A stretch of 64,000 nt of DNA from the IMG/VR virus record IMGVR_UViG_3300020463_003402; one strand, 5' to 3'. Each line of letters begins with the position of its first letter. Positions within the stretch are counted from its first letter, which is position 1. The notes beneath the pieces are model-generated. The model ran no database searches. It was not told the origin of the DNA and was given only the letters and a program-made list of their open reading frames with translations. Shown here in pieces: positions 1,851 to 61,794 of this stretch. The stretch is from an uncultured virus (IMG/VR IMGVR_UViG_3300020463_003402) (taxonomy: Duplodnaviria; Heunggongvirae; Uroviricota; Caudoviricetes). Position numbers and translations under genes: made by a program.

Positions 1851-1855
1851 GATAG

Positions 1856-4986: not shown

Positions 4987-4997
4987 GTTTTGACTCT

Positions 4998-21761: not shown

Positions 21762-21780
21762 CGTCAATTTCCCCTAATTG

Positions 21781-26702: not shown

Positions 26703-27908
26703 TTAGGTCGTGGTATCGAAGATTACGCGAGTATCACCGTAAACTAGGCGATAACCTGAGTTCTCAGTCTTCACGTAAGTAATCGACTGGTTCTTGATTG
26801 CTGTCTCAGACTCAGACAGTACAGAACCGGCTTCGATAAGTTCTTCCAGCGTGTCAGCCTTTGAATAACAAATCAGCTTACCAGTTGGGGCTGAGCTTGA
26901 AATATGGAAGTTAACACCGCTTAAGAAGTCCATGGCCAGAGCCACGCGAGGACCACCGTTCTCCTGAAGAATTTCAGAAGTAGACTTACCGTTAGGTTGA
27001 GTTGGTAAGAACATTAGGAACAGTTCTAACCACATATCGTAGTTACCTACGATAGTATCCACAGGAACACCTTTACGCGCACGCTGGGCCAAGAAGTCCG
27101 CTAATGCCACGTAGTTACCTTTAAGTCCTTTAGCAGCATCCCAATCTTTATAGGCTGAGGCTGCAACCACTTCTGCCGCTTCGTGAACACCATCACCATT
27201 GATCAATAGCGAGGTAGCCATCTTCACTTTGCTGATTTCTTTGTTACGCGCAATACGGGCCGCATATGGAGTCAGGATATCTAGGCTCACACGACGTTCA
27301 AATTCGTATGAGGTACGGATACCTGAACCATGCTTGAAGAACTTAACCGACTTCTCAGAGCTTTTGATAGTCTGCATCGGAATGTTCGCAAGTTCCGCGA
27401 TAGGCGAAGTATTTAGCTGGCCTTGATCGTCAAAAATTGCGGTGGTAATAAGCTCGTGGCCCGTGATAGTTCGGGTCTGTGCAACCATAGGTGCCGTTGA
27501 TTCGAACATATCTTGGCGCGTATTCCACTGAAGCATATCATCGATAACTTCTGGGAAAAGTGCGCGAGAGCCTGGGCGTGCACTGAAAGTATCCGCTGCA
27601 GCTTGAAGTGTAATGCCTTGCTCAAAAGCGTTTTTGAACGGAAGGTTCAACTCTACGATCGCCGCTTGATAGCCGGTCATAAAGTTACCATTATCCAAAC
27701 GGAAGTTTTTACCAGACTCAGCATCATTTGACGCACGAACGTCAACTGCTAGGTTTAGGTAATCACGAACGTTAATACCGTATTGTTTTGCTGCTTGTAC
27801 CAGCTTTACGCCAGCGCGAATAGATTCGTCGCTGTGCTCACTATTAATACCCGCTAAAACCACGTTAAGTGGGGCGCGTTTAATCTGACTAAGATTTGCT
27901 GCTTGCAT
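26703..27908 (-). CDS. Major capsid protein
   Basis: ~400 aa after protease and decoration genes; HK97-like features (LFPEVI, KHGSGIRTSYE, LLINGDG); followed by a hairpin at 26672-26695. Confidence 0.85.
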   Translation of the reverse strand: MQAANLSQIKRAPLNVVLAGINSEHSDESIRAGVKLVQAAKQYGINVRDYLNLAVDVRASNDAESGKNFRLDNGNFMTGYQAAIVELNLPFKNAFEQGITLQAAADTFSARPGSRALFPEVIDDMLQWNTRQDMFESTAPMVAQTRTITGHELITTAIFDDQGQLNTSPIAELANIPMQTIKSSEKSVKFFKHGSGIRTSYEFERRVSLDILTPYAARIARNKEISKVKMATSLLINGDGVHEAAEVVAASAYKDWDAAKGLKGNYVALADFLAQRARKGVPVDTIVGNYDMWLELFLMFLPTQPNGKSTSEILQENGGPRVALAMDFLSGVNFHISSSAPTGKLICYSKADTLEELIEAGSVLSESETAIKNQSITYVKTENSGYRLVYGDTRVIFDTTT

Positions 27909-27950
27909 CGTCAATCTCCAAATTTTTATTTGCGGTGAGAATCTTCCGAA

Positions 27951-31075: not shown

Positions 31076-32857
31076 TTAGTACCGACGAATTATTTTTGTC
31101 GGGTTATTGCTGGAAGAATAACCGATTAAGTCGGTTGTGCCAAAGATATCATTATCTTGTTGGCCTAGAAGGATACCTCCGCCGTGGCCAGCGTTAGAGA
31201 AATCGGTATTCACATTCACCCAGCCCTCAAGACCGTCTTTTATAATTTTATACGAGACCCCTGCGGCGAGATAGGCCATTGCGTGGAAGAAGTGGTCTTT
31301 ACCCGAAAGCTTAACCCAAACGGCTTGTTCCTCTTCGACTTCTTCTCTGATCATATCCTGAAGATGAGACTCTATTTTGTCTTGGTTGCTGGTGTAACCT
31401 TCAATCGACCACGTTAAGTTTCTTATACCTGTGGCCACATGGTCTAGCATATCGGTACGGTTCACCTTGATATAGTCCACTTCTCCGAGTGCATTCTTCT
31501 CTTCAGCAACTTCCTTACTTTTCGTGTAGTGCACCGGCATAATTCGCCCGAGGCTACCGTTACGGATATCATTACTGGTAGGTGTATAAGGGTACCTATC
31601 CAAGCCTCCCCCAACAAAATGATATTGCTCATCTAGCTTATTAACCAACCCCCGTAATTGGTCTATATGGCAGTAAGTGGCTAAAATAATCCGCATCTTT
31701 CTAGGGTCGGTACCACAACCTACAACGATGTAGCACGTTACCCCCATATCAATACCAATGAAGTGTGGTTCACCTTGTCTTGGCTCTGGGATAGCTGGGC
31801 TTCCCATGGCTAGTTTTATCTGGCTTAACGAAAGCTTCTGGTCTTCGTTGTTGTAGGGCTCACCCTTAACCGTGTTGTAAAAGCCCTTCAGGTTATCATT
31901 CGATTTGTAATCAAATAACTGAGCGAAACAATATTGAGGGTCTAGTCTGTGGGTAGAGAACGTGCGGATACGGTACCCGCGGTTGAGCACCCGACTCGGG
32001 TATTTAGCCACCCATTCACGGTTTTCATAGTCAGCAAGGTTTAGGGGCTTCCGGCATTTTTCACAAACCACGCGTGCGGATTGAATATCGAGCTGGCCAG
32101 AGTCGATAAGGTTATCTGAGATATCTTCAAATTTTTCCAAATCATCGGGTAGGCCATCGACTTCGACGAACGCTCGGCTAAATACGGGTATTTGGTAATG
32201 GTTGCAGCAACGGCACTTAATCACGTACTCATGCTGGTCACTTCTTCGGTATCCTCTGTCTACGCCTACCCCTTCATAAGTTGGGGTACTGAAACGCTGG
32301 TTAACACGATGATCGGAACCTTGTAGACGAGAGTTAAAGAGTGACAACATTGACGGGTCTGTTAAGTCAATCTCATCGTTAAAAACAAAGTCCGCGTTGA
32401 TACTCGTGGCGTCGGCCTCTGCAGAGCCGGTAACGTAAAGGAAACTGGTACCAATCCTCATTAGGTCCATAGACTGCTTGGTCTTGTCCCCACTCTCTTG
32501 CCTAAAAGCTTTATCAAAATTAATCAACGGTTGGATACGCGCTTTTGAAATACGCTTAAACATCCGCTCATTCGGCATGGTGTAAATCAAAGAGGTGTTA
32601 GGGATTCGGCTTAATATCGCCAGCGCTTTACGAATCTGTATTTCGGTAAGACCAACCTGAGAGGGCTTTATACAATCGAGGCTGGGGTGCATATCATCGG
32701 CAATCTGTTTTTGGAAGGGATAGCGCTCGAAACTAAAAGGTCGCTTGTTAAGTGAAGTGTTCGCACACATCCAATCCCCATGCGTCATATCTTTCGAATC
32801 TTTGTTGTACCGGCCTTCTGCAGTCGAGTACAAATCCATTAAAAACTGATTAGCCAC
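31076..32857 (-). CDS. Terminase large subunit (lambda gpA-like)
   Basis: KPSQVGLTE, FNDEID, FSTP, CRCC..CEKC, GIDMG nuclease motif; GTG start with GAGG SD. Confidence 0.9.
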   Translation of the reverse strand: MANQFLMDLYSTAEGRYNKDSKDMTHGDWMCANTSLNKRPFSFERYPFQKQIADDMHPSLDCIKPSQVGLTEIQIRKALAILSRIPNTSLIYTMPNERMFKRISKARIQPLINFDKAFRQESGDKTKQSMDLMRIGTSFLYVTGSAEADATSINADFVFNDEIDLTDPSMLSLFNSRLQGSDHRVNQRFSTPTYEGVGVDRGYRRSDQHEYVIKCRCCNHYQIPVFSRAFVEVDGLPDDLEKFEDISDNLIDSGQLDIQSARVVCEKCRKPLNLADYENREWVAKYPSRVLNRGYRIRTFSTHRLDPQYCFAQLFDYKSNDNLKGFYNTVKGEPYNNEDQKLSLSQIKLAMGSPAIPEPRQGEPHFIGIDMGVTCYIVVGCGTDPRKMRIILATYCHIDQLRGLVNKLDEQYHFVGGGLDRYPYTPTSNDIRNGSLGRIMPVHYTKSKEVAEEKNALGEVDYIKVNRTDMLDHVATGIRNLTWSIEGYTSNQDKIESHLQDMIREEVEEEQAVWVKLSGKDHFFHAMAYLAAGVSYKIIKDGLEGWVNVNTDFSNAGHGGGILLGQQDNDIFGTTDLIGYSSSNNPTKIIRRY

Positions 32858-32969
32858 AGCTACCTCAATTATCGTCAATTAATCTATTTTCCGAATAGAT
32901 TACGCTTTACTGACTATACAGGCAATCTTGCGGTATGATATTTAACCTATAACAAAGCGGAGATTGACG

Positions 32970-33462: not shown

Positions 33463-35970
33463 ATGTATAGTTTATTATCGAAAGCCTTATTTGCTGTGGG
33501 TGTGCCAACGATTCCGTTGTTTAAAACTTCAAAGCTCCCCGCTATCCCCAGTGACAAAATCCAGCAAGCCACCCAGGAGTTACACCAAAAGAATTGGCAA
33601 GCGACACATGCGGATAAGCTTTGTGGCGTGGCTTTAGGTCAGGCCCTCAAAGACGAGAGTGAGTATTGTCTTGTTGCGGTAAGGCTCGATCATAAACAAT
33701 CCGATTTAAAGCTTTCACTTTCGCATAAGCTTCCTTCAAGCTTTTGGCTGGTCTCTGAATCAAATAGTCACTACATGATTTTTAAAGCGCCGGCACCTTC
33801 GCCTTGTAGTGAATCATTAAAATCATTCGCGGTTCTTGGCTCTGGCCTCGAGGGACGGTTGCTTTCATTCTTGGCGGAAGACGCGTTTGTGGTACTGAGC
33901 TCACCAACTCAGGTACCGACCAAAGACGTCGTAGATAACTTACCGGTATTTGAACCACACCACATCATGGATGTGTTGCAGGAGATTATGCCGGATGTGG
34001 AGTTTCAAAAAGAGCCATATCAGCACGAAGCAAGGACAAAATTACACACTCTCGGCCAATTGGACGTAACTATGCGCTCTTACCTGACGCATTTTTGCTA
34101 CGATTTTTTACTAAATTGCGACCAAAACACGTACCTTTTGCCCGTTTTGCAAGAAATTGACGCACTTTATGACAGTTTTTCGCAGAATTTTGCCGAAATA
34201 CCACCAAATCATCAAAAAGACGCCTATTTCCAGACCTTCTACTCACTTATCCACCAAGTGCGTATGTATTACAACCTTCGCCTTCCGCCCCACTGGGACG
34301 TCAATATTGGCTCTAATTTAAGGGACAGATACGCGATTCCGTTCACCTCTAAAGACGCGCAATACACCTATCAAGGCCTTCAGAAGTACGTTTACGATAA
34401 AATGTCCGATGCCATAGGCAACGAAACCCAAATGTTGAGTGCATGCCAGTCGGCCATGGAAGAAATCGCACGCTCATTCACGGTAACCAAACTTGAAGTA
34501 GACCAGCTCAAGCGATATATCTCGCGACAGTCTGGGATGAAGCTAAACATGACGAAGATGGATAGTCAGATAACCAACCTAAGGAAGCAAGCGCGAGGCG
34601 TGATAGACCTACCTGCCATCGTGTCTATCGTCACACAGTTTCTCTCAAGTCAAACCGAGCATCGCTATGATGCGGCCATCGACGCCCAGAGATTATGTCG
34701 CTGGATAGGCACGCATTGGGAACCAGTAGAAGACCATGAAATAAGCCATATCATCAACACCTACTTTCCCTCGAACTTCACAGACAAGGGTACGCGTAAC
34801 ACCAATACGATTATTACGGCCATCAAAAATAAACTGGCCCTGCCCCTTCGACGCGTCAATTCTGTAGGTGTGAACTTCAACAACGGGTTTGTAAATTCCC
34901 AACTTCAACTATTACCCCACGACCCAGATATGGGGCTAACGTATACGTTGCCATTTACATTCAACCCAGACCAAGTTTACCCACCGGAAAAGCTATATAA
35001 ATTTATCACCCAGATTTGGACCTCAGACGACGAGAGCGATAACATTATGGCTTTGCAAGAAGCGATGGCCGCGACGTTCTTCAACACCGGTACACTTTTC
35101 CAACGGGCCATCCTACTTCACGGCACGCCAAAATCAGGAAAGAGCCAGATACTCAATATCATTCGCGGTCTGGTACCACCACAAAAGCGCGTTTCACTCC
35201 CACCCAACAAGTGGGGAGATAACGACGCGCTGGCCGCGCTATCGAATAAACTACTAAACCTGTGTGGCGAACTCTCTGAAAACGAACCTATCAACAGCCA
35301 GCGCTTCAAAGATATTGTTGATGGCCAAGAAGTCACGCTTAAGCGAAACATCAACCAACATAACACCCTGCAACCGATGGCTACACATTGGTTCGCCTCA
35401 AACCATCTGCCAAAAACTAAAGATTTCTCCGAAGGATTTACTCGACGCTGGTTGATACTCAATACGGAAAGACCTATTCCCCCTGAAAATCGAGAGCTGG
35501 ATATTGGTAACAAAATTGTTGCCGAAGAAAAGGACAAGATTATCTCGTGGGCCTTACGCGCTTATCCGAGACTGGTCAACAATCGCGACTACACTTTACC
35601 CGACTCACATCATGAGCTCGTGCGCCAGCTCGGACAGATGAATAATAACGTTCGATACTTCTTCGAAGCCTCTGGGTATATTGAATTGTCTGATGATTCT
35701 ATGATAGCGGTGCTTAAATCCCTACCAAAAGACGAGTTGATTGATGAGCTTAAGTCGCTCCCCTCTATAGCGGGTAGGGATTTATATACACTCTACGCCG
35801 CATCTGTTCGCGAATTTAAAAACGGGGCTGTCGTGGATGAAGGTGAATTCTATCGTCGAACCAAAGAGCTCAGTACGCTTTATCAGTTTCTCCAAGTCGT
35901 GGGACGCGATTCGAAAAACCGATTAGTTATTCAGTATTATGGACTGAACATTCAATTAAACGCTCATTAA
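33463..35970 (+). CDS. D5/P4-family primase-helicase (SF3 helicase)
   Basis: NFNNG (D5_N), HGTPKSGKS Walker A, ASNHLP, GFTRRWLIL. Confidence 0.85.
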   Translation: MYSLLSKALFAVGVPTIPLFKTSKLPAIPSDKIQQATQELHQKNWQATHADKLCGVALGQALKDESEYCLVAVRLDHKQSDLKLSLSHKLPSSFWLVSESNSHYMIFKAPAPSPCSESLKSFAVLGSGLEGRLLSFLAEDAFVVLSSPTQVPTKDVVDNLPVFEPHHIMDVLQEIMPDVEFQKEPYQHEARTKLHTLGQLDVTMRSYLTHFCYDFLLNCDQNTYLLPVLQEIDALYDSFSQNFAEIPPNHQKDAYFQTFYSLIHQVRMYYNLRLPPHWDVNIGSNLRDRYAIPFTSKDAQYTYQGLQKYVYDKMSDAIGNETQMLSACQSAMEEIARSFTVTKLEVDQLKRYISRQSGMKLNMTKMDSQITNLRKQARGVIDLPAIVSIVTQFLSSQTEHRYDAAIDAQRLCRWIGTHWEPVEDHEISHIINTYFPSNFTDKGTRNTNTIITAIKNKLALPLRRVNSVGVNFNNGFVNSQLQLLPHDPDMGLTYTLPFTFNPDQVYPPEKLYKFITQIWTSDDESDNIMALQEAMAATFFNTGTLFQRAILLHGTPKSGKSQILNIIRGLVPPQKRVSLPPNKWGDNDALAALSNKLLNLCGELSENEPINSQRFKDIVDGQEVTLKRNINQHNTLQPMATHWFASNHLPKTKDFSEGFTRRWLILNTERPIPPENRELDIGNKIVAEEKDKIISWALRAYPRLVNNRDYTLPDSHHELVRQLGQMNNNVRYFFEASGYIELSDDSMIAVLKSLPKDELIDELKSLPSIAGRDLYTLYAASVREFKNGAVVDEGEFYRRTKELSTLYQFLQVVGRDSKNRLVIQYYGLNIQLNAH

Positions 35971-36089
35971 TCAATCAGGCATAACCTTAGGCGAAAAAAT
36001 TTTTAAAAATTTTTTCGCCTTTTTTACGTTTCTTTGCACACACTGACAATGTGTGTAAGTGCTTTCAAGTGACGAACTTTTCCAGCTAC

Positions 36090-36114
36090 AAAAACACAAT
36101 TTTATTGTGTCTTT
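36090..36114. promoter_or_regulatory. Operator-like palindrome AAAAACACAA-N5-TTGTGTCTTT
   Basis: Near-identical to the perfect palindrome at 53671-53695. Confidence 0.55.
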
Positions 36115-36229: not shown

Positions 36230-36429
36230 GGCGTTGACAGCAAACAGCTTACATGCCTCAACCGCGGGAGCCAGCGCTCCTTACAATTTGGAAATTGACG
36301 ATAAAGCCTGTTCTAATCTTTGTGCCCGTCCGCATACCTAGTTTCAAGCTTATCCTACGAACAACGACCTCTGATTACGTTGAACGTCTCAAACCCCGAG
36401 TGGCTATAATCCCTCGGGGTTTTCTTTTT
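36230..36429 (+). ncRNA. Candidate ~200-nt non-coding (sponge-like) RNA carrying a 19-nt perfect target of the sRNA
   Basis: TTGACC..TATACT upstream (short 15-bp spacer); ATTTGGAAATTGACGATAA at 36286-36304 with no start codon after it; terminator at 36391-36429. Confidence 0.45.
36391..36429 (+). terminator. Intrinsic terminator
   Basis: AAACCCCGAG..CTCGGGGTTTTCTTTTT. Confidence 0.75.
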
Positions 36430-38834: not shown

Positions 38835-39094
38835 TTAAGAAGTATACTTTTAAAAACTTCGCTTTCGATTTAATTCGTACCTGAGGTTTATTTACACACA
38901 ATGTCCTCGTTACTCCTTGTGACTTGCTGCGAGTCGCAGTGATCTACCTAACGACCTTTGTGTGACGACCTGTTAGCTCTGCGTGATAAGAATTTGAATT
39001 CACTTGTGGTCTTCACTGTCGCAACGTGCAACAAACCACCGCGAAAGTGAATCACACCCAAATTGTGTTTTTGGTCGAAATAAGACCATTGCGA

Positions 39095-45558: not shown

Positions 45559-45596
45559 CCCTCTTTGGAATTAACTTTTAAATTTGGAAATTGACG

Positions 45597-46496
45597 ATGC
45601 AAATAAACGTAAACAGTTATTTTTGTGGTGCTGGCCTGATGGATATTGGGCTGATAAATGCGGGATTAACTATTAACCAGTCTTTTGAAATTGATACCGA
45701 CGCGGTTAAGACGTATCGCGAGAATATTGGCCACCATGTTCAACAGTGCGATTTGACTGAAGAGCTCGTGTTAAACCAAGAAGAATGCGATGCGATGGTT
45801 TTTACCTACCCTTGCACCAAGTATTCCACGATAGGTGATATTCACGGCGTAAGAACTGGTGACGATTTATTCCTTCATGCTTTGCGTCACTTAGCCATTC
45901 GCAAGCCCGATGCCTACGTGGTGGAAAATGTGCCAGGAATGAGAGCGTTTCCGCTGGTAATGGAAGCTATGACAAAGTTGCCGGATTACTACGTTCACGT
46001 TTTTTGTCCGGTCCAATCTCAGCATTGGTTACCCCAGCGAAGAGATCGTCTGATTATTTTTGGTACCCGCCGACCTTTTGAAGTTCGCCCCCCTAAGAAC
46101 TGTCGTCCAGTGACGCTGGCTGAAATTGTCGAGCATGACCCAGAAGTAACCTTGCCCAGCGCTATTAAAGCGCGAATGTCGGGTAAGTACCGTGACCTCC
46201 CAATAATCAGCGACCCCAGCAAAGGAGATATCGCGCCGACTTGTGTTGCTCACTACGCCAAGGATAAATCGACACGCTTGGTTGCTGACAAGCGATTCCC
46301 AATGGGTGTTCGTCCTTACTCAGTGCGTGAGTATGCGAGGCTACAAGGAGTACCAGACTGGTTTACGTTCCCTGTCTCGGCTACGGCAGCATATCGCCAG
46401 ATTGGTAATGGTGTGTCAGTGCCGAAAGGTGAATGGGTAGGCGGCGAGTTGTTCCGCTATTTTCAACAAAGTAAAAAATTAGACAAGGTGGCTTAA
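45597..46496 (+). CDS. DNA cytosine-5 methyltransferase
   Basis: FCGAG, YPC, ENV, QRRDRL and YRQIGNGV motifs. Confidence 0.92.
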   Translation: MQINVNSYFCGAGLMDIGLINAGLTINQSFEIDTDAVKTYRENIGHHVQQCDLTEELVLNQEECDAMVFTYPCTKYSTIGDIHGVRTGDDLFLHALRHLAIRKPDAYVVENVPGMRAFPLVMEAMTKLPDYYVHVFCPVQSQHWLPQRRDRLIIFGTRRPFEVRPPKNCRPVTLAEIVEHDPEVTLPSAIKARMSGKYRDLPIISDPSKGDIAPTCVAHYAKDKSTRLVADKRFPMGVRPYSVREYARLQGVPDWFTFPVSATAAYRQIGNGVSVPKGEWVGGELFRYFQQSKKLDKVA

Positions 46497-47892: not shown

Positions 47893-48025
47893 AGAACTAG
47901 CAGAAGAAGAAATCGCGGAAGAAGAAAAAGTCCTGGCTGAAGCAAAAGCGATTGCTGCAGCCGTTTAACCTGGGGGGAATGTTCTCCCCCTTCAATTAAC
48001 TTTTACAATTTGGAAATTGACGATT

Positions 48026-49411
48026 ATGACTAATCAAACTATTGCTACAAAACACGAAGATATCGAACGCGCTACTTACTCACCAGAAGATAACAAGTTG
48101 CGTATCTACCCCCTAAATCGCCTAGATACAGACCTTTACAACGAGCTTAAGGAACTGGGCTTTGGTTGGGCACCAAAACAAGAACTTTTCGTGAAACCTT
48201 CTTGGTCGCCTCAAGCGGAAGATTTATGTATTCGCTTGGCCGGCACTATTGAACCTGAAGACACGACGATGGCCGAGCGTGCAGAAGCTAAGGCTGAGCG
48301 ATTAAGGGCTCTTGCTGAAAAGCGTGCTGACCAAGCACGAGGTTTTAGTGCTGCGGCTAACAATATGCAATTTGGTGATCAACCTATTCTAATGGGCCAT
48401 CACAGCCAGCGTAAAATGCAGAAAGCGCAAGAAGCCCAAGAGCGTAACGAAGAACGCGCCAAAGAAGCCAGCTCAGCGGTCCGATATTGGAACTGGCGCA
48501 TGATGGGCACCATTGCTCATGCTAACCACAAAAATCGCCCTGACGTTATTTATAGACGTATTAAAACGTTACTCACGGACTTGCGAAAGCAACAACGCTA
48601 TTTGCACGCTGCAGGGGATTGCTTATCTCTTTGGGAACGCTGCAAAGGGATGGAGGATGCCGATAAGCAAAAAGAGTTTGCTTTGATGATTGCGAATTAC
48701 CGTTGGGATATCTGTATCTCAGATAGTTACCGCGACATTAAGGAAGATAAGAAACCTTTATCGGAAATTATCGACGCCAATATTGAGCTAGGTACCAAGC
48801 GTAAGAACGACCAGAACTTACACCGCAAGATAAACCATATCTTGAACCGTCTTACTTACGAACGGGCTCAGTTGGGGGAAGTTGAATATTTTACCGGTAA
48901 GCTTACCGCCCCTGTATTGCAAACGTTCCTTAGAACACACGGCGCGGATAAACCTAAAGCGACCAAATCTGACGTTGGTTGGATTGTGGAGTGTGACAAC
49001 GACTTACCTATCCACATTGGTACAGGTTCGACACTGGAACTGGAAGAATTGGAATGGCGCGACCTGATGTATGAGGTGGGCTATGAAGTACCGGTCCCTA
49101 AGCCGAAGGCTCCCCCAATTGTTAACCTGTCACCGGAAGAAGTAAAAAGCGTGACGGTGAAAATGTGGGGCAGCGCACACAAGTACCCTATCGTCTCAAT
49201 GACGAAAGCGGAGTACAGCGCTATTTATAGTGATTACCGTGGGGTTAAGCCGAGTACCTGTGGTCTGTTCAGAGTCAAGGTATGTAAGCAGGTTCCTGCA
49301 GGAGGTGACCATTGGAACTCTAACTGGGCTGTGGTTTACCTAACGGACTCAAAGACGCACGCCGCGCCGAATTCAACGGCTCTTGAGTATGTGGAAGTGG
49401 AGACAGCCTAA
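48026..49411 (+). CDS. DUF3560-like protein of mobile elements
   Basis: ATYSPEDNKLRIYP, GFGWAPKQELFV, QPILMGHHSQR. Confidence 0.75.
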   Translation: MTNQTIATKHEDIERATYSPEDNKLRIYPLNRLDTDLYNELKELGFGWAPKQELFVKPSWSPQAEDLCIRLAGTIEPEDTTMAERAEAKAERLRALAEKRADQARGFSAAANNMQFGDQPILMGHHSQRKMQKAQEAQERNEERAKEASSAVRYWNWRMMGTIAHANHKNRPDVIYRRIKTLLTDLRKQQRYLHAAGDCLSLWERCKGMEDADKQKEFALMIANYRWDICISDSYRDIKEDKKPLSEIIDANIELGTKRKNDQNLHRKINHILNRLTYERAQLGEVEYFTGKLTAPVLQTFLRTHGADKPKATKSDVGWIVECDNDLPIHIGTGSTLELEELEWRDLMYEVGYEVPVPKPKAPPIVNLSPEEVKSVTVKMWGSAHKYPIVSMTKAEYSAIYSDYRGVKPSTCGLFRVKVCKQVPAGGDHWNSNWAVVYLTDSKTHAAPNSTALEYVEVETA

Positions 49412-50028
49412 TGGATTCATCAGTGTATGTAAGACCCAATAAACCCAAGCATGTTACGGCACCGGAAAAAGTAGAACTCGAGCCTATCGAGTTCTCCGAG
49501 GCCCCAAAGCCTGTCGTTGTTCATGCCTCAACGGAATGCCACGTTACGCCCTATGATGTGGCGGAGCGTATGGTCGAGCTGTTGGAGTTGGAATCCGACG
49601 ATCATGTTCTAGAACCTTCGGGGGGTACCGGTAATTTGGTTCAGGCTGTTAAAGCCGAGGGGCATGATGCTGACCTTATTACGATTGTTGAGCGTGAATA
49701 CTCGTTGGTTGAAGCTTTGTTACAGCGTTTTTGTAGTGCCGATTGCGAGGGGGCTGTCCCCTTGGTGCATCATGAAGACTTTCTTAGCTGGGCCGAGGCT
49801 CGTTACAACGCGGGGTATCGTTATGAAAAGATCATAATGAACCCCCCGTTCAAACAGGTAAAAAAGCATATGGAGGCCGCACGCAAGTTACTCCGCTTCA
49901 CGGGGGTACTTATTGCGGTGGTACCAACGTCGTTCGACCACCCCAGTTACGAGGAAGTCGAGACGTTACCCAGCGACACGTTTAGCACCTGTAAGGTGTT
50001 CACGAAAATCGTGCGGTATGAGGGTTAG
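49411..50028 (+). CDS. SAM-dependent (N6-adenine-type) methyltransferase
   Basis: VLEPSGGTG, IMNPPF. Confidence 0.85.
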   Translation: MDSSVYVRPNKPKHVTAPEKVELEPIEFSEAPKPVVVHASTECHVTPYDVAERMVELLELESDDHVLEPSGGTGNLVQAVKAEGHDADLITIVEREYSLVEALLQRFCSADCEGAVPLVHHEDFLSWAEARYNAGYRYEKIIMNPPFKQVKKHMEAARKLLRFTGVLIAVVPTSFDHPSYEEVETLPSDTFSTCKVFTKIVRYEG

Positions 50029-51258: not shown

Positions 51259-51312
51259 ACCTTACAGGGGGGAATTGCCCCTCTTATTTAATTAACTTGT
51301 TGGAGATTGACG

Positions 51313-52152
51313 ATGCACCCTGAATTAACAAAACAACTGAAAGTAAATTGCGCGAAACTCGGGCTTTCATTCTCAAGCCTCGACCTAATTGGCGAGTCTG
51401 AGACTCAGATAAAAGATATCACTATTAAAATAGAGCGCGATGCGGATGTTGAAAGCCCTCGTGAGTGGGATAACGTAGGTACTATGGTGTGTTGGCATAG
51501 TAGATACAATTTAGGTGATGAACAACCGTCAGCAAGCTACCAAGACTACCGCATTGGTATGGTAGAAGACGTTGAGCCAGGGTTTGAAGCGATGTTGGAA
51601 AGACTCGAACAGACTTGGCTTTCAAAACCTTGGGAGGCTGAATGGACTAAAGAATACGAAGAACTAGTAGAAGCGAAGATAGAAGCACGACTTGAGAAAT
51701 ACTATTTTATCCTGCCACTCTACTTATACGATCATTCAGGCATTACGATGAATACCGGCGGATTATCATGCTCTTGGGATTCGGGTCAAGTTGGGTTTAT
51801 TTATGTCACTAAAGAGAGAGCCCGTGAACAGTATGGTTTTAAGCGATTAACGAAAGAACGTGTTCAAAAGGTCTACGAATACTTAGATAGCGAAGTTAAG
51901 ACTTATGCCGCCTATCTTGAGGGTGATGTATATGGTTACATTATCGAAGGTGAAGATATCAACGATTCTTGCTGGGGCTATATTGGGCCGGATGGAGAAG
52001 GCTCAGCATTATCCGAAGCTTTATCTAATGTTGTAGCTCATAAAGAAAGTCGGGTAGATAGACGAATAGATAAGATTAAAACTTGGATCAAAAACCAAGT
52101 CCCACTCTTAAAACGTCGCGAACTGGCAACAGAGTTACCAATATTGTTATAG
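51313..52152 (+). CDS. Conserved phage/mobile-element protein of unknown function
   Basis: SPREWDNVGTM, LPLYLYDHSG, WDSGQVGFIY, DSCWGY. Confidence 0.75.
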   Translation: MHPELTKQLKVNCAKLGLSFSSLDLIGESETQIKDITIKIERDADVESPREWDNVGTMVCWHSRYNLGDEQPSASYQDYRIGMVEDVEPGFEAMLERLEQTWLSKPWEAEWTKEYEELVEAKIEARLEKYYFILPLYLYDHSGITMNTGGLSCSWDSGQVGFIYVTKERAREQYGFKRLTKERVQKVYEYLDSEVKTYAAYLEGDVYGYIIEGEDINDSCWGYIGPDGEGSALSEALSNVVAHKESRVDRRIDKIKTWIKNQVPLLKRRELATELPILL

Positions 52153-52304
52153 TGATTACGAAATCTTGCCACCCCGCGGCAACATTTCGCCTCTTATATC
52201 ACTCCTTATGGCTTGAAACGGTCTAAAACTCTTAGACTTTCGTTTAGGCACATGCTTTGCAATTAACTCCATAGAAACAACCAAACCTCTTATGGAGAAA
52301 CACA

Positions 52305-52457
52305 ATGAAAAAATTAGGATTCGCAATCGCGCTAGTACTTGGTATGGGTTCAACAATGGCTATGGCTGATGTTGGTAGTAATGTTGTTGTCCCAAAACCA
52401 GCGGACAACCCTAAAACCGAATCACTCAAGCCTAAAAAGCCTACGGTTGGTTTTTAA
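52305..52457 (+). CDS. 50-aa secreted peptide precursor (not in the ORF track)
   Basis: MKKLGFAIALVLGMGSTMAMA-DVGSNVVVPKPADNPKTESLKPKKPTVGF; GGAG SD; Sec signal with AMA cleavage site. Confidence 0.75.
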   Translation: MKKLGFAIALVLGMGSTMAMADVGSNVVVPKPADNPKTESLKPKKPTVGF

Positions 52458-52468
52458 GTCTAGAAATT

Positions 52469-52493
52469 AAAAGAGCGGCTAAGCCGCTCTTTT
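52469..52493. terminator. Bidirectional intrinsic terminator
   Basis: AAAAGAGCGGC-taa-GCCGCTCTTTT between convergent genes. Confidence 0.85.
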
Positions 52494-53237
52494 AAATAGT
52501 ACTTCCAATTTTCTAGGTATGGACCCTGCGAGGTCCTTGACGTAGAACTCTTGAATACTCGCGTGGAACAACAACATAAGAAACATAATAGTCTGGGTAA
52601 TAAACACGATATTAAACAGGAAATAGAAGCTCGGTAAGTGTAGCGCGTACTCAATATCAACGAGGCGATAATCATAAAGTAGTGGGCCTGTCTCATGAAT
52701 ACCAAAATGTATCGTGAATATGTGGTAGTAAACCGCAATAGCAAAACAGATAAACCAGCACAACTTATAAACCATACATAACCATGTACCTAGGTTTGTG
52801 TCTTCAGTTTTATCCAGCAATTTGAATCCAGCTTCTCTAAATCTTTCAGACCTAATAAGTTGGTTCGCTACCCAAAACTGGAATTTAACCCGATATTGGT
52901 ACATCACCATGGTTAGAATACCTGGCACATAAATCATGGCAATAGCCGTATGAAGTGTCGGGCTTAAGCTAAACATTAGGCTGGCAATTGCCTGTTCGGA
53001 TATTGAAGCAATTATGATCAAAGCCAAAACGATACGGTTATTGAAACCCTTAACCATTACGCCAGCTAAGATTATGCATGAGAACATCACCGCGTAGTAG
53101 CTGATAATATCGGACAAAGAATACAGTTGCCATTTCCCTTCCACAAGGAAGTTGTTTAAAACAGCCGTAAAGATAAGTAGGGCCGTAACGAAAAACGCGA
53201 ACCGTAAGCCGTAGGTTTTAAAGAAGTGACGGTACAT
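52479..53237 (-). CDS. Polytopic membrane protein (~6 TM)
   Basis: Multiple hydrophobic helices; 4 bp downstream of the XRE gene. Confidence 0.8.
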   Translation of the reverse strand: MYRHFFKTYGLRFAFFVTALLIFTAVLNNFLVEGKWQLYSLSDIISYYAVMFSCIILAGVMVKGFNNRIVLALIIIASISEQAIASLMFSLSPTLHTAIAMIYVPGILTMVMYQYRVKFQFWVANQLIRSERFREAGFKLLDKTEDTNLGTWLCMVYKLCWFICFAIAVYYHIFTIHFGIHETGPLLYDYRLVDIEYALHLPSFYFLFNIVFITQTIMFLMLLFHASIQEFYVKDLAGSIPRKLEVLFKRAA

Positions 53238-53241
53238 AAAA

Positions 53242-53562
53242 TTACTCCCAAAACGTCGCTAAGAATCTTTTAAAATCCGAGAATGGGATATCCGATAAGG
53301 TAATTTTACTCACTACCGCACCGAGTCCCTTCTTCATGTGAGCGCGTTTTGCAATTTGTTGGTATTTGTAGAATTCTTCTGTGGAAATTTTGCCGTATCG
53401 CTCGGCATTTGAAATAGTATTCTTGTGAACGTCCGCAGCAATAGCGAGTTCTTCTTGCGTCAATCGATAGTTCTGGCGCATGTTTTTAAACTTTCGAGCT
53501 ATTCGCCTACGACGCTCTAGCTCCCATTGTGGTTCTATATTATCGTCAATTTTCTTAGACAC
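53242..53562 (-). CDS. XRE-family HTH transcriptional regulator
   Basis: LTQEELAIAADVHKNTISNAERYG. Confidence 0.85.
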   Translation of the reverse strand: MSKKIDDNIEPQWELERRRRIARKFKNMRQNYRLTQEELAIAADVHKNTISNAERYGKISTEEFYKYQQIAKRAHMKKGLGAVVSKITLSDIPFSDFKRFLATFWE

Positions 53563-53670
53563 GGCAGTACTCCATCAAGGCCATAATGTAAATCTTTTAC
53601 TACAAAACAAAACGAACAAATTCTAACCAATTAAATAAATTAAAGAAAGCAGAATTTTTTAATAAATATT

Positions 53671-53695
53671 AAAAACACAAATAAATTGTGTTTTT
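53671..53695. promoter_or_regulatory. Perfect operator-like palindrome AAAAACACAA-ATAAA-TTGTGTTTTT
   Basis: In the divergent XRE/ligase intergenic region, near TTGATA-17-TAGTTT. Confidence 0.65.
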
Positions 53696-53791
53696 GCAGC
53701 GTAACTTCGTTTTTAACTTGATATACCAAAGTTGAAAGCGTAGTTTTAACTCCGCCTACGGGCTTAACTTTAAAATTTGGAAATTGACGAT

Positions 53792-54967
53792 ATGAATATC
53801 CCCGCTAATACCCCTAGCACCACCTCTTTAGATGCCGACGTTCGCTTTGAACAAACACTATACAAAGTCCATTCGGGCGGGAAAGTCGGTTCGTGGCATA
53901 TCAAGGTTACGCTTAACCCTGACGATACGGCCAGCACACTTGTTACCTCCCGTAAGGTCTTGGGTGGCAAAGGTGTCGAAACGCCTACTGATTACACCGA
54001 AGGTAAGAATATTGGTCGCAGCAATGAAACCACGCCAATTATGCAAGCCGTGTTTGAAGCTCAAAGCAAAGTCAAAAAACAACTGGATAAAGGCTATGTT
54101 GAAGACCAACCGGAGGAAGGTGCAGCGGTCACCAATGCCTTAGGTTTGGTTAAACCGATGTTGGCCCAGCCGATTGATAAAGTAAAAGACTGGGAATTCC
54201 CTGTATTTGTTCAGCCTAAGATGGATGGCCACCGTTGCTTAGCAACCATACAAGATGAAAAGGTGTTCCTTTACTCTCGTGGCGGAAAGCCAATCACGGT
54301 TGTTCACGTTATGGAACGTTTACAGTTTCTTTATGATAGAGGCATTTGGGATGGTACAACGTTGGATGGTGAGCTCTATGCACACGGTAAAGCCTTTGAA
54401 AATATTTCTAGTCTTATCAAGAAGCCACAAGAAGACAGTAAATACCTGTCGTACAATATTTATGACGTTGTTCTTAATCTTCCTTACGCTGATAGATTTG
54501 ATTACTTGGACTCTCGTATAACCGAAAGCTCTTACCCTACCCTATGCTTAACGGCGTGTTACAAAGTCGATGATCAAGCTGGTATCGACAAATATCATGA
54601 TTTTTGGACCTCTAACGGCTATGAAGGCACGATGGTTCGCCAAGGGGATGCCCCTTACGAAACGGATAAACGCAGTGCATCTTTGATGAAGCGTAAGGAC
54701 GAAGAAGACGCCGAGTTTGAAATTATTGGGGTCCGCAAAGGTAAGCCTAATAAGCGCCTAGGTACAGAAGTAGGTATTTATGTATGTCAGACAGAAGACG
54801 GTAAAACCTTTGATGTTACGGCGCCTGGGGATGCTCACGAAAAGCATGAACACGCCATGAACGGTCATAAGAATATCGGTAAGAAACTCACGGTGTTCTC
54901 GTTTGGCTACACCAAAGAAGGTAAGCCTTGTCATGTTACTAATTCCCGTATTCGTGAGGACCTGTAA
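53792..54967 (+). CDS. ATP-dependent DNA ligase
   Basis: QPKMDGHRC (KxDG), LDGELY, YEGTMVR, LMKRK. Confidence 0.92.
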   Translation: MNIPANTPSTTSLDADVRFEQTLYKVHSGGKVGSWHIKVTLNPDDTASTLVTSRKVLGGKGVETPTDYTEGKNIGRSNETTPIMQAVFEAQSKVKKQLDKGYVEDQPEEGAAVTNALGLVKPMLAQPIDKVKDWEFPVFVQPKMDGHRCLATIQDEKVFLYSRGGKPITVVHVMERLQFLYDRGIWDGTTLDGELYAHGKAFENISSLIKKPQEDSKYLSYNIYDVVLNLPYADRFDYLDSRITESSYPTLCLTACYKVDDQAGIDKYHDFWTSNGYEGTMVRQGDAPYETDKRSASLMKRKDEEDAEFEIIGVRKGKPNKRLGTEVGIYVCQTEDGKTFDVTAPGDAHEKHEHAMNGHKNIGKKLTVFSFGYTKEGKPCHVTNSRIREDL

Positions 54968-55602
54968 TGGCCCAGCTACGTCGTGATAATGTATTTCGAT
55001 TACAGCGTAGCTTGTTCTACTGGGATAAGTCTTTCGATGCGCCTTTCGTTCACCTTATTTACAAAAAGCTGAAAGCATATGTTGAAAATAAGTTCCCCGA
55101 TTTAGACTGGGATGAGGAACTTAAGTTAGCGCGAGAAGACTTCTGGCATGTGAAGACTTGGGGGAACCTAGAGACGGGACTTGAAAAGTCTCGTCTAGTT
55201 ATCGATGTAAAAGGGCAAAAGATAAATATTCAGGTCAGTAAAATGATGTGGTGTTTACTTTACCCCGATTACTTATTGATAACTTATCCACTCTGGCCCC
55301 CAGGAAAACAAAAGACGATGGATAGTGAAACGCTGAATTGGGCGAACCCTATGTTTCACTACCCCTCAAGATATTGGCATCTTCCGGCACACGTTTATAG
55401 TTACTTTGAAAGTGTCTATGGGGAGCGTAGGCCTGAAGAGATTAAAGGGGACCGTTACCAAAAGTACCTTGTTAAGCGTAGTGAATATTGCCAGTACTTT
55501 GCTAGGAAGTACCGTTTACCGTTAAACCATTTTGAAGCGGTAACAGGAACGAGAGTTCAGGCAAGACACCACGATTTAAAAACTATCCTAGCGCTTTATT
55601 GA
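54967..55602 (+). CDS. Hypothetical protein
   Basis: Coupled ORF. Confidence 0.65.
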   Translation: MAQLRRDNVFRLQRSLFYWDKSFDAPFVHLIYKKLKAYVENKFPDLDWDEELKLAREDFWHVKTWGNLETGLEKSRLVIDVKGQKINIQVSKMMWCLLYPDYLLITYPLWPPGKQKTMDSETLNWANPMFHYPSRYWHLPAHVYSYFESVYGERRPEEIKGDRYQKYLVKRSEYCQYFARKYRLPLNHFEAVTGTRVQARHHDLKTILALY

Positions 55603-56872: not shown

Positions 56873-56902
56873 GAATAATTGACGATAAGAGACACGATAG
56901 CC

Positions 56903-57244
56903 ATGTTGAAATTTTCAGAAAGACTCGCTCTTTTGAAGAATGCGATACGAGAAAAAGACCTTAAGCAGAAAGACCTTGCAGACGCGCTAGGCTGCAATCA
57001 AGCCAAAGTTTCTTTGGCTCTTTCTGGGACTAAAGAGGTCCCAATGGAATTTTTACTCGAGATACTTCTTAAATCTGAGTTCCCAATCGAGAGAGTGTTC
57101 CCAGACCTGAGAAACGATTTACAAGAAATTGTAACGTTACTTGAGAAGGGGGCTAGTCAACAGGCCACGACTAATTTACTTAATTTGATGAAATTAACTA
57201 ACCATTATGACCAGCATTCAAAAGATACCAAAGCAGCCAGCTAA
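56903..57244 (+). CDS. XRE/Cro-like HTH protein
   Basis: LKQKDLADALGCNQAKVSLALSG. Confidence 0.8.
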   Translation: MLKFSERLALLKNAIREKDLKQKDLADALGCNQAKVSLALSGTKEVPMEFLLEILLKSEFPIERVFPDLRNDLQEIVTLLEKGASQQATTNLLNLMKLTNHYDQHSKDTKAAS

Positions 57245-58685
57245 CGAAATCTGGTTCGATATGAATGATGTGTATGACAGAAGAGATTCACTGTCATTGC
57301 GCCCCTATCAAATCGAGCACTTAGGTTTTTCACTGGCGAACTCTCGTTCTATGGACTTATCCGAGGCCGGTACCGGTAAAACTCCGGCCGGTTGCCTCTG
57401 GGTTTACCATCACTCTAAAGATGGCCGCGTTATTTGGACGATGCCTAAATCTCTGCTCGTAAAGAACTACCATGAATTATTGTTGTGGTCAGACTTAGAG
57501 CCTCACCAAATTATGGTGATAGATGGTACGCCAGCTCAACGCGCTAAGCAGTTCGCGAACAAAGAAACCAAAGTATTTATGATGGGGTTCGATGCCTTTG
57601 CCAACAATCACAAAGAAATTGTTGAACGATACCCTGACACCTATCACCTCTGTGGTGATGAGTGGCATTTGGGTTTCAGCACTCACGGCGAACCGCATTA
57701 CAGAAAACCCAACACGTTCATTGGTCCCAAGCGCACCCACAAAATGTACCAGTACATGAAGCGCGGAGGTGACTTGTTGATCATGACGGGAACCTTTATC
57801 AATGGCCGGTTGTGTTCCGCGTATCCAGGCTTGAAGTTAATTAATCCCCTGTACTACCCAACGTACAACAACTTCATGATGTGGCACGCCATGTTAGATG
57901 AGTATGGGAAGCCCTTCATGTGGAAGAACCATGACCGACTTCAAGCGCTTATTGATAAGCACAGTCGTCGGGTTACATATGAACAAGCTTACGGCAAGGA
58001 AAAGAAAATTATCGTTGCCGAAATGTGCACCATGTCAAAGTCTCAGGCCAAAGCGTTTAACGATATTAAGCAAAAAGGTATCACTGAACTAGAAGATGAT
58101 TTCTTAGAAGCTGAAAACGAAGCGGTAACGCTACAGCGCTGCTTTAAGATCATGCAATGCCCAGAAGAGTATGGTTTAAAGCATAACGACTCTGATGGTA
58201 AAGACGCACACCTTATGCAGCACCTTGAGACGCACAAGTTTAACGAAGAACCTTTGATTATCTTCGAAACTGTTGTTGCGGCCCATGCACGCTATAAGAA
58301 GATATGCGAAAAAATGGGTCTACGTGCTGAGTATATAAACGGCAGCATAACCAGCCGACGCGGAGAAATAGACCACAAGTTTCGCCAAGGTGAAATTGAT
58401 GTGTTGATTTGTAGCCCTGAAGTAGCTGGTGTGGGTTTTAACTGGGGTCATGTAGACCACATGATATTTACCTCTTTCGACTGGCAAGACACGACATTCA
58501 TCCAGAACTATCGAAGAGCGCTTCGGGGTGTTCGAGAGAAAGCCGTGAGAATTACCTTGCTTGTCTATCGTGGTGGCCTAGAGCTTCACGTAGCTAAGAA
58601 ACTGCTGAATAAATCGAATGACCGTACACAAGTTGAAGAAGGTGTGACGGTTGACCTTGTAACCCCAATAATGCAAGCCGCTTAA
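57207..58685 (+). CDS. SNF2-like superfamily 2 helicase
   Basis: AGTGKT, DEWH, MTGT, AGVGFNW, QNYRRALR. Confidence 0.85.
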   Translation: MTSIQKIPKQPANEIWFDMNDVYDRRDSLSLRPYQIEHLGFSLANSRSMDLSEAGTGKTPAGCLWVYHHSKDGRVIWTMPKSLLVKNYHELLLWSDLEPHQIMVIDGTPAQRAKQFANKETKVFMMGFDAFANNHKEIVERYPDTYHLCGDEWHLGFSTHGEPHYRKPNTFIGPKRTHKMYQYMKRGGDLLIMTGTFINGRLCSAYPGLKLINPLYYPTYNNFMMWHAMLDEYGKPFMWKNHDRLQALIDKHSRRVTYEQAYGKEKKIIVAEMCTMSKSQAKAFNDIKQKGITELEDDFLEAENEAVTLQRCFKIMQCPEEYGLKHNDSDGKDAHLMQHLETHKFNEEPLIIFETVVAAHARYKKICEKMGLRAEYINGSITSRRGEIDHKFRQGEIDVLICSPEVAGVGFNWGHVDHMIFTSFDWQDTTFIQNYRRALRGVREKAVRITLLVYRGGLELHVAKKLLNKSNDRTQVEEGVTVDLVTPIMQAA

Positions 58686-61167: not shown

Positions 61168-61794
61168 ATGAGTAGCACAAATAAAAAGGTCGCTGAGTTC
61201 GAAGACTACCCTACCCCGCGAGAACTTGTCGAAGCCTTATTCAAGTATATTGACTGGGATGCACTTAGGCACTTTGCGTCCTACGACAACCGGCCAGCTA
61301 GGTTCCTAGAGCCGTGTCGTGGTCTGAAAAGAAATATCTACGACTTGGTACCACAGGACTTTGAAAAGTATTACTGCGAGATTCAGGAAGGTTTGAACTA
61401 CCTAGAGACAGACCTCAGCCCATTACACTTCGATATTATCGTAACTAATCCCCCATTCTCGCTTTTCGAAGAGTTTGTCACCAAAGCACGCAGTGAGGCC
61501 GCGGACCACGGGTTTGTATGCTTCTTAATGCGTATTAACGCTTTAGGGACAAAGAAGCGTGAGAAGTTCTGGGCTGATAATCCGCCCGATAAAATTATTG
61601 TCGCGGTACCTCGCCCTGACTTTAGTGGTGGGGGTGGTGATAGCTGCGAGTATGCGTGGTTCTGCTGGGACCCTACGGGGATCTTATTAGTAGACTCGAA
61701 CGTTGGGCGCCTTAACTGGGATAAGCCTAAAAAGCGTCGCAGCAAGAAGATAGACAACCGGAAATTGACTGATGAAAAAGAAAGCCAAGCGTAA
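61168..61794 (+). CDS. DNA N6-adenine methyltransferase
   Basis: DYPTP, FLEPCRG, IVTNPPFS, EYAWFCWD. Confidence 0.85.
   Translation: MSSTNKKVAEFEDYPTPRELVEALFKYIDWDALRHFASYDNRPARFLEPCRGLKRNIYDLVPQDFEKYYCEIQEGLNYLETDLSPLHFDIIVTNPPFSLFEEFVTKARSEAADHGFVCFLMRINALGTKKREKFWADNPPDKIIVAVPRPDFSGGGGDSCEYAWFCWDPTGILLVDSNVGRLNWDKPKKRRSKKIDNRKLTDEKESQA

Follow-up and report, generated by a model that had tools for sequence, protein, structure and literature searches.

Why would a tailed phage set the gene of a small exported peptide end to end against an operon for a helix-turn-helix (HTH) regulator and a polytopic membrane protein? The question is raised by a stretch of 64,000 nucleotides from an uncultured virus of the Caudoviricetes (IMG/VR record IMGVR_UViG_3300020463_003402), here called the window, in which the gene of a 50-aa pre-peptide converges on a leftward operon composed of an XRE-type HTH gene and a gene for a protein with six predicted transmembrane helices (6-TM). 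Comparison with relatives points to the peptide and 6-TM genes as a moron-like cassette that has been added to an immunity region. The reading that we favour, tentatively, is that of a prophage-expressed envelope cassette that protects the lysogen by exclusion or immunity and is attached to the gene of the candidate XRE repressor. The argument turns on the following features:

52153-53241, unstranded: accessory cassette, from the phrog_6186 stop to the XRE stop, with the peptide gene, a terminator and the 6-TM gene
52305-52457, plus strand: pre-peptide gene, 50 aa, recognized by its Shine-Dalgarno (SD) sequence, signal sequence, selection and conservation
52467-52495, unstranded: bidirectional intrinsic terminator with 14-nt perfect arms, flanked by an A-tract and a T-tract
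52479-53237, minus strand: 6-TM gene, 252-aa predicted inner-membrane protein of an orphan family
53242-53562, minus strand: XRE-type HTH gene, 106 aa, first gene of the leftward operon and candidate prophage repressor

A cassette added next to the candidate repressor gene

The cassette is 1,089 bp long, and its nature becomes apparent when the same junction is inspected in a related phage. A profile of XRE homologues retrieved two further viral contigs (L041 and L042) with an XRE protein of 110 aa and 69% identity. In the sister phage (L041/G006), the XRE gene occupies the same slot between the ligase and phrog_6186 genes, and the convergent XRE and phrog_6186 stops lie 2 nt apart with nothing between them. 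The 6-TM and peptide profiles found no match anywhere in G006, a 94% complete provirus with an integrase, or in G007, while in the positive controls G001 and G005 they scored E ≤1e-129 and E ≤1e-36, respectively. Since the cassette is absent at the same junction in the sister phage, it can be regarded as an add-on; and since the sister phage keeps the XRE gene without the pair, the switch does not depend on the pair. In the excerpted text of PMC3594210, morons are defined as extra prophage DNA with its own promoter and terminator. The cassette presents extra DNA, a promoter-like element, a terminator and a deviating base composition (40.3% GC against an arm mean of 45.0%, sd 2.3, a value among the lowest 3.3% for 300 stretches of the same size), with the qualification that the promoter-like element of its own belongs to the peptide gene only while the 6-TM gene, by gene layout, rides on the XRE transcript. 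Judged on these sequence features, the cassette is a moron-like add-on and not part of the core switch.

The two genes of the cassette travel together. In all seven loci with the 6-TM gene, the XRE and peptide genes are present as well, together with the promoter-like element, and the peptide and 6-TM genes are either both present or both absent in 9/9 loci read. The first-pass annotation of this DNA had named homologues of the membrane protein without such a peptide as the observation that would count against a joint module; the 7/7 loci of the window's clade carry both genes. These seven loci represent the window's clade only (6-TM identity 76-100%), and their constant co-occurrence is one evolutionary observation, not seven. 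Both genes show purifying selection against a background of synonymous change that is near or at saturation.

The layout of the genes is compact. The same annotation had described the peptide gene as converging across a bidirectional terminator on the XRE/6-TM operon, and the operon as holding the sole minus-strand genes of the right arm. Both descriptions hold, the other minus-strand open reading frames (ORFs) of at least 90 aa in 32964-64000 lying inside longer plus-strand ORFs. A gap of 4 nt separates the XRE stop from the 6-TM ATG, and because of this short distance the SD sequence of the 6-TM gene falls within the final codons of the XRE gene (TGG GAG TAA). The peptide and 6-TM stops are 21 nt apart. 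The terminator, which folds with -20.6 and -21.2 kcal/mol on the two strands (z -5.5 and -6.0), overlaps the 3' end of the 6-TM gene (its last five codons and stop) and is unchanged in 5/5 relatives. An Rfam match to the enterobacterial small RNA STnc540 at 52418-52551 on the minus strand was set aside, as it is sub-threshold (30.6 bits, with a gathering score of 38) and the terminator hairpin is its most likely cause.

The exported peptide

The peptide gene is a real coding gene. Its translation start is preceded by an SD sequence:

52294-52297, plus strand: Shine-Dalgarno GGAG, 7 nt 5' of the peptide ATG, invariant in relatives

The first-pass annotation had noticed an ORF with a good SD sequence, a classic Sec signal and a Pro/Lys-rich mature part of 29 aa, and all of these are borne out by the sequence. 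In particular, the pre-peptide begins with an MKK n-region, followed by a hydrophobic core of 12 residues (LGFAIALVLGMG) and by the c-region STMAMA and an Asp, with Ala at positions -3 and -1 and cleavage predicted after Ala21 (AMA|D). Read against the features of a Sec (type I) signal, it shows the basic n-region, an h-region within 7-15 residues and small residues at -3/-1. The mature part of 29 aa contains 5 Pro and 5 Lys and has a net charge of +2. The signal is almost unchanging, with two conservative changes besides the start residue in 1/7 variants, while the C-terminal 11 residues SLKPKKPTVGF are identical in 7/7 aligned variants and the length of the ORF is constant across all relatives.

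The pattern of substitution supports the coding nature of the frame. When compared with its two most distant relatives (L012 and L013), the ORF shows 16.5 and 24 synonymous and 2.5 and 6 non-synonymous differences, corresponding to a dN/dS of about 0.03 and thus to strong purifying selection. Over three pairs, 64 synonymous against 12 non-synonymous differences give a pN/pS of 0.06. Four of the five alternative frames have values of 3.4-4.2, while the codon-aligned antisense frame has 0.11, so that the ratio by itself cannot exclude an antisense ORF; the sense frame is favoured by its SD sequence and ATG, by its constant length and by the signal sequence. Among 5.8 billion clustered proteins only two clusters matched (94% and 82% identity), and searches of Pfam, PHROGs, PADLOC and NCBIfam gave nothing usable, the sole NCBIfam row being a fimbrial signal-sequence match (E 0.2). 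The best ESM Atlas score, 0.80, lies inside the chance range.

Upstream of the peptide gene, three elements deserve attention:

52161-52190, unstranded: inverted repeat GAAAT(C/G)TTGCC-N7/8-GGCAACATTTC, stem kept and loop varying in 5/5 relatives
52221-52237, unstranded: palindrome GTCTAA-N5-TTAGAC, present in the window and unconserved in relatives
52247-52261, plus strand: sigma-54-type -24/-12 element GGCAC-N5-TTGCA, with a putative start site near 52273

Sigma-54 promoters follow the consensus TGGCAC-N5-TTGCW, with the GG and GC elements 10 nt apart. The element of the peptide gene reads GGCAC-ATGCT-TTGCA, preserves the GG-N10-GC spacing and lies on the correct strand 44 nt 5' of the peptide ATG. 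The exact pattern GGCAC-N5-TTGCA has a single match in the window, and matches with one mismatch number 2 against 3.6 expected, so that the window-wide count alone is not significant. The element is taken seriously because of its place and its pattern of conservation: the GG and the TTGCA are retained in 7/7 loci, and the 5-nt spacer varies (ATGCT, AGGCT, AGGCA, ACGCT). The peptide gene thus has a promoter-like element of putative sigma-54 type. As no Sigma54_activat domain is present in any of five phage records, a host activator would be required. A scan with the sigma-70 consensus found no site upstream of the peptide gene or of the XRE gene.

The inverted repeat at 52161-52190 (-12.1 kcal/mol, z -4.1) is centred about 98 nt upstream of the putative start site and is a candidate for the enhancer (upstream activating sequence) of the sigma-54-type promoter or for an RNA hairpin. 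The palindrome, to which the first-pass annotation had drawn attention, exists as described. L012, however, has lost the left half and L011 carries a mutated copy, so the site is not a required one, and we rejected it as an operator.

The six-helix membrane protein

Six long helices are present in both AlphaFold2 (AF2) models of the 6-TM protein and in its hydropathy profile. The first model, built on 7 sequences, was unusable (pLDDT 49), and the second, built on 10 sequences, reached a pLDDT of 66 and a pTM of 0.58. Lys and Arg together number 2 in the N-terminus, 2 in loop 2, 7 in loop 4 and 5 in the C-terminus, while the other loops have 1, 0 and 1, from which a topology with both termini inside the cell is predicted by the positive-inside rule. 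With this topology, most of the invariant residues fall on the predicted cytoplasmic face, and the long periplasmic loop is acidic while the mature peptide is basic. In the alignment of 10 sequences the invariant positions are GFNN (64-67), E81, P105, E145/T147/N148, G184, P202 and Q215/T216, followed towards the C-terminus by E230-Y232-K234-D235-L236-G238-P241. The gene has a dN/dS of about 0.05, consistent with purifying selection.

Searches for relatives retrieved few proteins. A word-indexed search matched only seven, all with at least 74% identity, and two of these, named as hypothetical proteins, come from assemblies that bear the labels Tenacibaculum sp. KUL113 and KUL118. When 1.84 billion representatives were searched exhaustively with a profile, six proteins scored E ≤0.001, and three of them are distant full-length relatives (251-260 aa), with E 2.5e-56 to 3.4e-25 and 28-38% identity. 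When the distant homologues P0010, P0012 and P0013 were traced in viral contigs, they led to the same five loci or to none; in metagenome contigs they led to close relatives only, and in species-representative genomes to none.

Searches of family and structure libraries were similarly unproductive. There was no usable family match in Pfam (E up to 1), PHROG, PADLOC or NCBIfam, and at E up to 10 none of the 10 family members had a Pfam match save for one chance OppC_N row. A search of PDB sequences with the family profile gave no match, the best ESM Atlas score (0.88) lies inside the chance range, and Foldseek of the model against PDB and BFVD gave nothing at E ≤0.001. In a wide VIA structure search the top hits were rhodopsins (Z 7.7), under the noise level for helical bundles. 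Likewise, neither the 6-TM nor the XRE protein had a tblastn match in phage records. On the evidence of these searches, the 6-TM protein is a member of a very small orphan family. An intramembrane metalloprotease and a CPBP or AgrB-like peptidase were considered and rejected, given that the His residues of the close clade, which have the look of a metal site, are not invariant in the wider family and that there is no Pfam match. One further protein, P0007 (264 aa, on a 2.5-kb contig), is a chimera whose first ~146 residues are those of the 6-TM protein and whose remainder is the C-terminal part of an SMC/RecF-like ATPase. An artefact of assembly, or else a rearranged variant, is the probable explanation, because the two genes lie about 25 kb apart and on opposite strands in G001.

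A temperate phage and its candidate repressor

By ORF and family reading, the window holds most of a siphovirus-type phage genome. The nearest relative record (G001) has 81,404 bp, direct terminal repeats and 97% identity over the module. The gene of a tyrosine integrase of 412 aa, which includes an arm-binding domain, closes its replication arm, at a position that in window terms is just past the left end. An integrase is present in 5/6 relatives' records searched (G001 and 4/5 others); in G007, which is 81% complete, the search found none. G004, G005 and G006 are of the provirus class. The closest named phage, Pseudoalteromonas phage KB12-38 (large-terminase identity 50.6%), has a genome that terminates in an excisionase and an integrase. 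Judging by the integrases of its relatives, the provirus classes and KB12-38, the window phage is temperate. The closest named phages by large terminase (TerL) infect Pseudoalteromonas, Achromobacter, Caulobacter and Acinetobacter, in keeping with the Gram-negative type that the first-pass annotation had assigned to the phage.

In this context the lysogeny repressor is most naturally sought in the XRE protein, because the phage is temperate, the HTH gene is the first of its operon and this operon is the only one that opposes the early genes; indeed, it heads the only leftward unit of the early arm. That the sister phage retains the gene at this position in the absence of the cassette also speaks for a core gene. 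Its Pfam matches are to HTH families only and cover residues 20-67: HTH_3, at E 9e-5 and 22.9 bits against a cut-off of 23, and HTH_31. With its neighbours in the frame, HTH_3 is above the cut-off. The protein also matches PHROG families of repressors and regulators and evolves with a dN/dS of 0.02-0.03. We consider it likely that the XRE protein is the lysogeny repressor.

The region from which the operon would be transcribed contains the following elements:

53563-53791, unstranded: control region that separates the divergent XRE and ligase genes, 28.8% GC, conserved within the clade
53620-53625, minus strand: -10-like TAGAAT, putative promoter
53671-53695, unstranded: perfect inverted repeat AAAAACACAA-N5-TTGTGTTTTT, stem kept and loop varying in relatives

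The repeat and the TAGAAT are putative operator and promoter elements, respectively. The core of the repeat, the dyad AACACAA-N5-TTGTGTT, occurs at 53674-53692 and again at 36093-36111 and 39051-39069, with one and two mismatches in the latter two. All three sites are non-coding and lie in the early arm; the three matches compare with 0.41 expected, with the query itself among the three. The dyads persist in relatives, with three each in G001 and G004 (none in a reversed-pattern control) and two in G005 (two in the control), and in these three genomes the stems are conserved while the loops vary. They could serve as operators, as weak terminators or as sites of some other protein. At 35990-36060, downstream of the primase gene, there is a long A/T-rich perfect hairpin followed by a T-run, terminator-like in appearance, and a second dyad, CACACA...TGTGTG, adjoins it.

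Metatranscriptome contigs

Contigs from several RNA libraries cover the locus; they are assembled metatranscriptome contigs, and their depth is a poor basis for ranking genes. In run X15, the 6-TM and XRE genes (52633-53531) are covered by near-identical contigs with a word depth of 121-469, the peptide region has about 12, and the same phage's contigs in the covered flanking plus-strand bins have 1.4-9.5, with several flank bins without cover. In run X19, from another study, contigs of at least 99% identity cover 52206-53613, and the end at 53613 is 7 nt downstream of the -10-like TAGAAT on the minus strand. Contigs are absent from 51300-52167 and 53656-54895 in X19 and from 53532-53779 in X15, although missing cover proves nothing. 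X16 (one 18-kb contig, depth 234) and X20 span the module together with its flanks and are thus uninformative. Taken together, the contigs give a weak hint that the leftward operon is transcribed while the neighbouring genes are not. Contigs from three studies (X15, X19 and X16) end, without loose ends, at 52201, 52206 and 52214, about 60 nt upstream of the putative sigma-54 start site; these ends could reflect an RNA end or an assembly break beside the variable loop at 52172-52180.

What the pair may do for the lysogen

In the reading that we favour, the locus would be the immunity region of a temperate marine siphovirus to which a cassette has been added. The XRE protein would act as prophage repressor and would be transcribed leftward, against the early and replication genes, from the AT-rich region shared with the ligase operon. 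The 6-TM inner-membrane protein would be translationally coupled to the repressor gene and would therefore be made whenever the repressor is made, i.e., in lysogens. The peptide gene would be switched on by a host enhancer-binding protein via the sigma-54-type promoter, and the pre-peptide would be exported by Sec and cut after Ala21 to yield a 29-aa periplasmic peptide, basic and rich in proline. Peptide and 6-TM protein would then act jointly at the envelope as a lysogenic-conversion function, whose likeliest role would be lysogen protection, either by superinfection exclusion or with the 6-TM protein as immunity partner of the peptide. Of the proposals made in the first-pass annotation, the exclusion-type alternative thus remains the best guess, while arbitrium-like communication is left unsupported, as discussed below.

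Prophages offer parallels for such a function. In phage lambda, the cI-rexA-rexB genes represent repressor-linked prophage exclusion genes. Excerpts of PMC10883804 and PMC3594210 present P22 SieA and HK97 gp15 as prophage-expressed inner-membrane exclusion proteins, small or polytopic, that are made from a repressed prophage and represent extra DNA when compared with sister phages. The cassette resembles these systems in being extra DNA relative to a sister, and in that its genes either have a promoter-like element and terminator of their own or would share the transcript of the repressor. It differs from them in that no homology was found in the PHROG and PADLOC searches, and in that neither a partner exported peptide nor a sigma-54-type promoter is described for any of them. 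Among the papers listed by the literature search on prophage morons and superinfection exclusion, none used the term sigma-54, a result that does not establish the cassette as undescribed.

Several observations weigh against this reading. Regarding the repressor, the XRE protein is short and lacks an S24 cleavage domain, its divergent neighbour is a ligase gene and not a cro-like gene, and a second ORF with a weak HTH is present at 56879-57244. In the sister phage, the candidate operator dyad gave nothing beyond the control despite an almost identical HTH stretch, and the XRE-proximal half of the control region is unrelated to that of the window. As to the cassette, neither protein has an annotated relative in the family, profile and fold searches; since the cassette genomes form one clade, the co-occurrence of the two genes may go back to one acquisition and shows no interaction; and we know of no exclusion system of which a sigma-54-gated periplasmic peptide is a part. 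The invariant residues on the cytoplasmic face of the 6-TM protein would fit signalling or partner binding at least as well as a passive periplasmic block. Finally, the RNA contigs are unstranded.

The envelope cassette would nevertheless be informative in either of its possible roles. It is small, conserved and removable, it sits on the repressor transcript, and the cassette-free sister phage provides a natural control. Should the pair protect lysogens, it would be a new two-component exclusion or immunity system, made of two protein families that are themselves new. Should it act back on the repressor, it would be the first case in a diderm of an exported peptide that reaches a prophage switch through a membrane receptor. 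In both cases, the sigma-54-type promoter suggests that the timing of the peptide is set by a host signal.

Alternative explanations

Among the alternatives, the one that best survives is a circuit resembling the Sdp system of Bacillus subtilis, which we consider a distinct, if unlikely, possibility. Here the peptide would be a toxin or signal and the 6-TM protein both its immunity protein and its receptor, and the peptide-bound 6-TM protein would hold the XRE protein at the membrane. The operon would thereby be derepressed, which, if the XRE protein is the prophage repressor, could tip the phage toward induction, with the host sigma-54 activator setting the timing of the peptide. SdpC is made as a long precursor. 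As described in the excerpted text of PMC2910880, secreted SdpC is encoded opposite a convergent operon with the HTH autorepressor SdpR first and SdpI, a protein of the standard six-helix type, second, and conserved cytoplasmic motifs of SdpI are proposed to sequester the autorepressor. The gene anatomy of the locus is the same as that of sdpC with the convergent sdpR-sdpI operon, i.e., the gene of a Sec-exported product facing a convergent HTH/six-helix operon, with the polytopic six-helix protein downstream of the regulator as in the SdpI family. Moreover, the invariant 6-TM residues (GFNN[RK], E-T-N and E-Y-KDL-G-P) are on the predicted cytoplasmic side here too, the acidity of the long periplasmic loop is matched by the basic mature peptide, and an immunity-like gene would be on the constitutive lysogenic transcript with the peptide gene on a conditional promoter.

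This likeness, however, is one of layout only. There is no sequence relationship with the SdpI family, as none of the 10 family members has a Pfam match to it at E up to 10; the regulator is of XRE type and SdpR of ArsR type; and the product is a 50-aa pre-peptide in place of the long SdpC precursor. The setting differs as well, with a diderm host, a phage immunity region and a sigma-54-type promoter. The sister phage, which retains the XRE gene without the pair, indicates that the XRE protein does not exist for the cassette. In addition, it is not evident how a 29-aa peptide in the periplasm of a diderm would reach other cells, and a peptide that is unstructured and has a net charge of only +2 is unlike a membrane-active toxin.

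It is also unlikely that the two genes of the cassette are unrelated neighbours, with the 6-TM protein as a repressor-linked exclusion or abortive-infection protein and the peptide as an independent small moron that shares with it only a terminator and a history. This would account for the peptide gene having a promoter-like element, an SD sequence and a terminator of its own, and for a co-occurrence that comes from one clade and possibly from a single event. It would also fit the X15 contigs, in which the depth over the peptide region (about 12) is near that of the flanks and unlike the 121-469 of the operon, subject to the caveat on depth given above. On the other hand, the genes are present or absent together in all nine loci, their stops are only 21 nt apart with a common hairpin that overlaps the end of the 6-TM coding sequence, and both have been kept by purifying selection through saturating synonymous divergence.

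A more ambitious variant, which we regard as improbable, is that the cassette is a peptide-gated input into the prophage switch of a Gram-negative host, whereby a host sigma-54 activator would lead to an exported peptide, the peptide would bind the periplasmic face of the 6-TM protein, and the conserved cytoplasmic face would capture the co-transcribed repressor. If true, host physiology or cell density would be translated into derepression, either as induction or as boosted immunity, and a three-protein pathway similar to Sdp would have been built from unrelated proteins as an optional sensory module of the phage.

Very little speaks for an arbitrium-like system, in which a peptide released by lysogens or infected cells and sensed, by its concentration, via the 6-TM and XRE proteins would set the choice between lysis and lysogeny. 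To our knowledge, control of phage dormancy by peptides has until now been found only in phages of Gram-positive hosts, where it operates via intracellular receptors. In arbitrium, the propeptide gene is usually co-oriented with the receptor gene and downstream of it. What the locus shares with AimR-AimP-AimX and other RRNPP systems is a short pre-peptide with a signal that adjoins the HTH regulator of a temperate phage, and the invariant C-terminus of the peptide could be its active part. The 106-aa XRE protein, however, consists of the HTH only and has no peptide-binding domain of the TPR type; the peptide gene is convergent, with the 6-TM gene between it and the XRE gene, an order and orientation unlike those of aimR-aimP; and a membrane protein takes the place of the intracellular receptor. 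Furthermore, the peptide has not diversified across phages with 76-97% identity in the 6-TM protein, a temperate sister phage does without the pair, a route across the outer membrane is not evident, and the sigma-54-type promoter would link expression to the state of the host and not to infection. The host is Gram-negative, and a paper on the detection of RRNPP systems (PMC10075063) places them among Gram-positive Firmicutes.

Hok and MgrB exemplify small membrane-anchored toxins and regulators, and an uncleaved 50-aa product of this kind, controlled by the convergent operon or its 3' end in a toxin-antitoxin manner, would agree with the size and N-terminal hydrophobic segment of the pre-peptide and with the meeting of the two 3' ends at one hairpin, yet it is hardly credible given that a 12-residue core followed by an Ala-X-Ala site fits a cleaved signal better than an anchor, that a strong terminator separates the two transcripts and that no PADLOC or NCBIfam toxin family was matched.

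Other features of the genome

Other genes of this siphovirus-type genome lie in a minus-strand structural arm and a plus-strand replication arm:

9174-13745, minus strand: J-like tail protein
16440-21767, minus strand: tape measure
26703-27914, minus strand: major head protein
structural arm, minus strand: portal gene
31076-32878, minus strand: large terminase
33463-35970, plus strand, replication arm: primase
53777-54967, plus strand, replication arm: ATP-dependent ligase
57207-58685, plus strand, replication arm: helicase

Megablast of 51300-55000 against phage records gave no match. At the provirus end that was read, lysis and tail genes lie on one side and a second integrase with island-type ORFs on the other, and no tRNA genes were found there. 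In L053 (G005:81000-90777), the positions 737-9778, past the phage integrase, hold a second integrase-like ORF, a large helicase-like ORF, two more large ORFs whose type is not apparent, then one ORF like a resolvase and another like an integrase, all labels read from the translations alone; the region may be a neighbouring mobile or defence island.

The early arm also contains at least three DNA methyltransferase-like genes (45591-46496, 49411-50028 and 61168-61794), and KB12-38 encodes genes of the Dnd and PAPS-reductase types, which together suggest a heavy investment in DNA modification.

Finally, the motif TTTGGAAATTGAC occurs a few bases 5' of many start codons in both arms, with 26 matches at up to two mismatches against 2.66 expected in the window. 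Examples are at:

15938-15950
36287-36299
45583-45595
48009-48021
53776-53788

The motif looks like a phage-wide conserved ribosome-binding or leader sequence, and because the TTG within it is taken as a start, many starts given by the ORF lister would be 2-5 codons too early.

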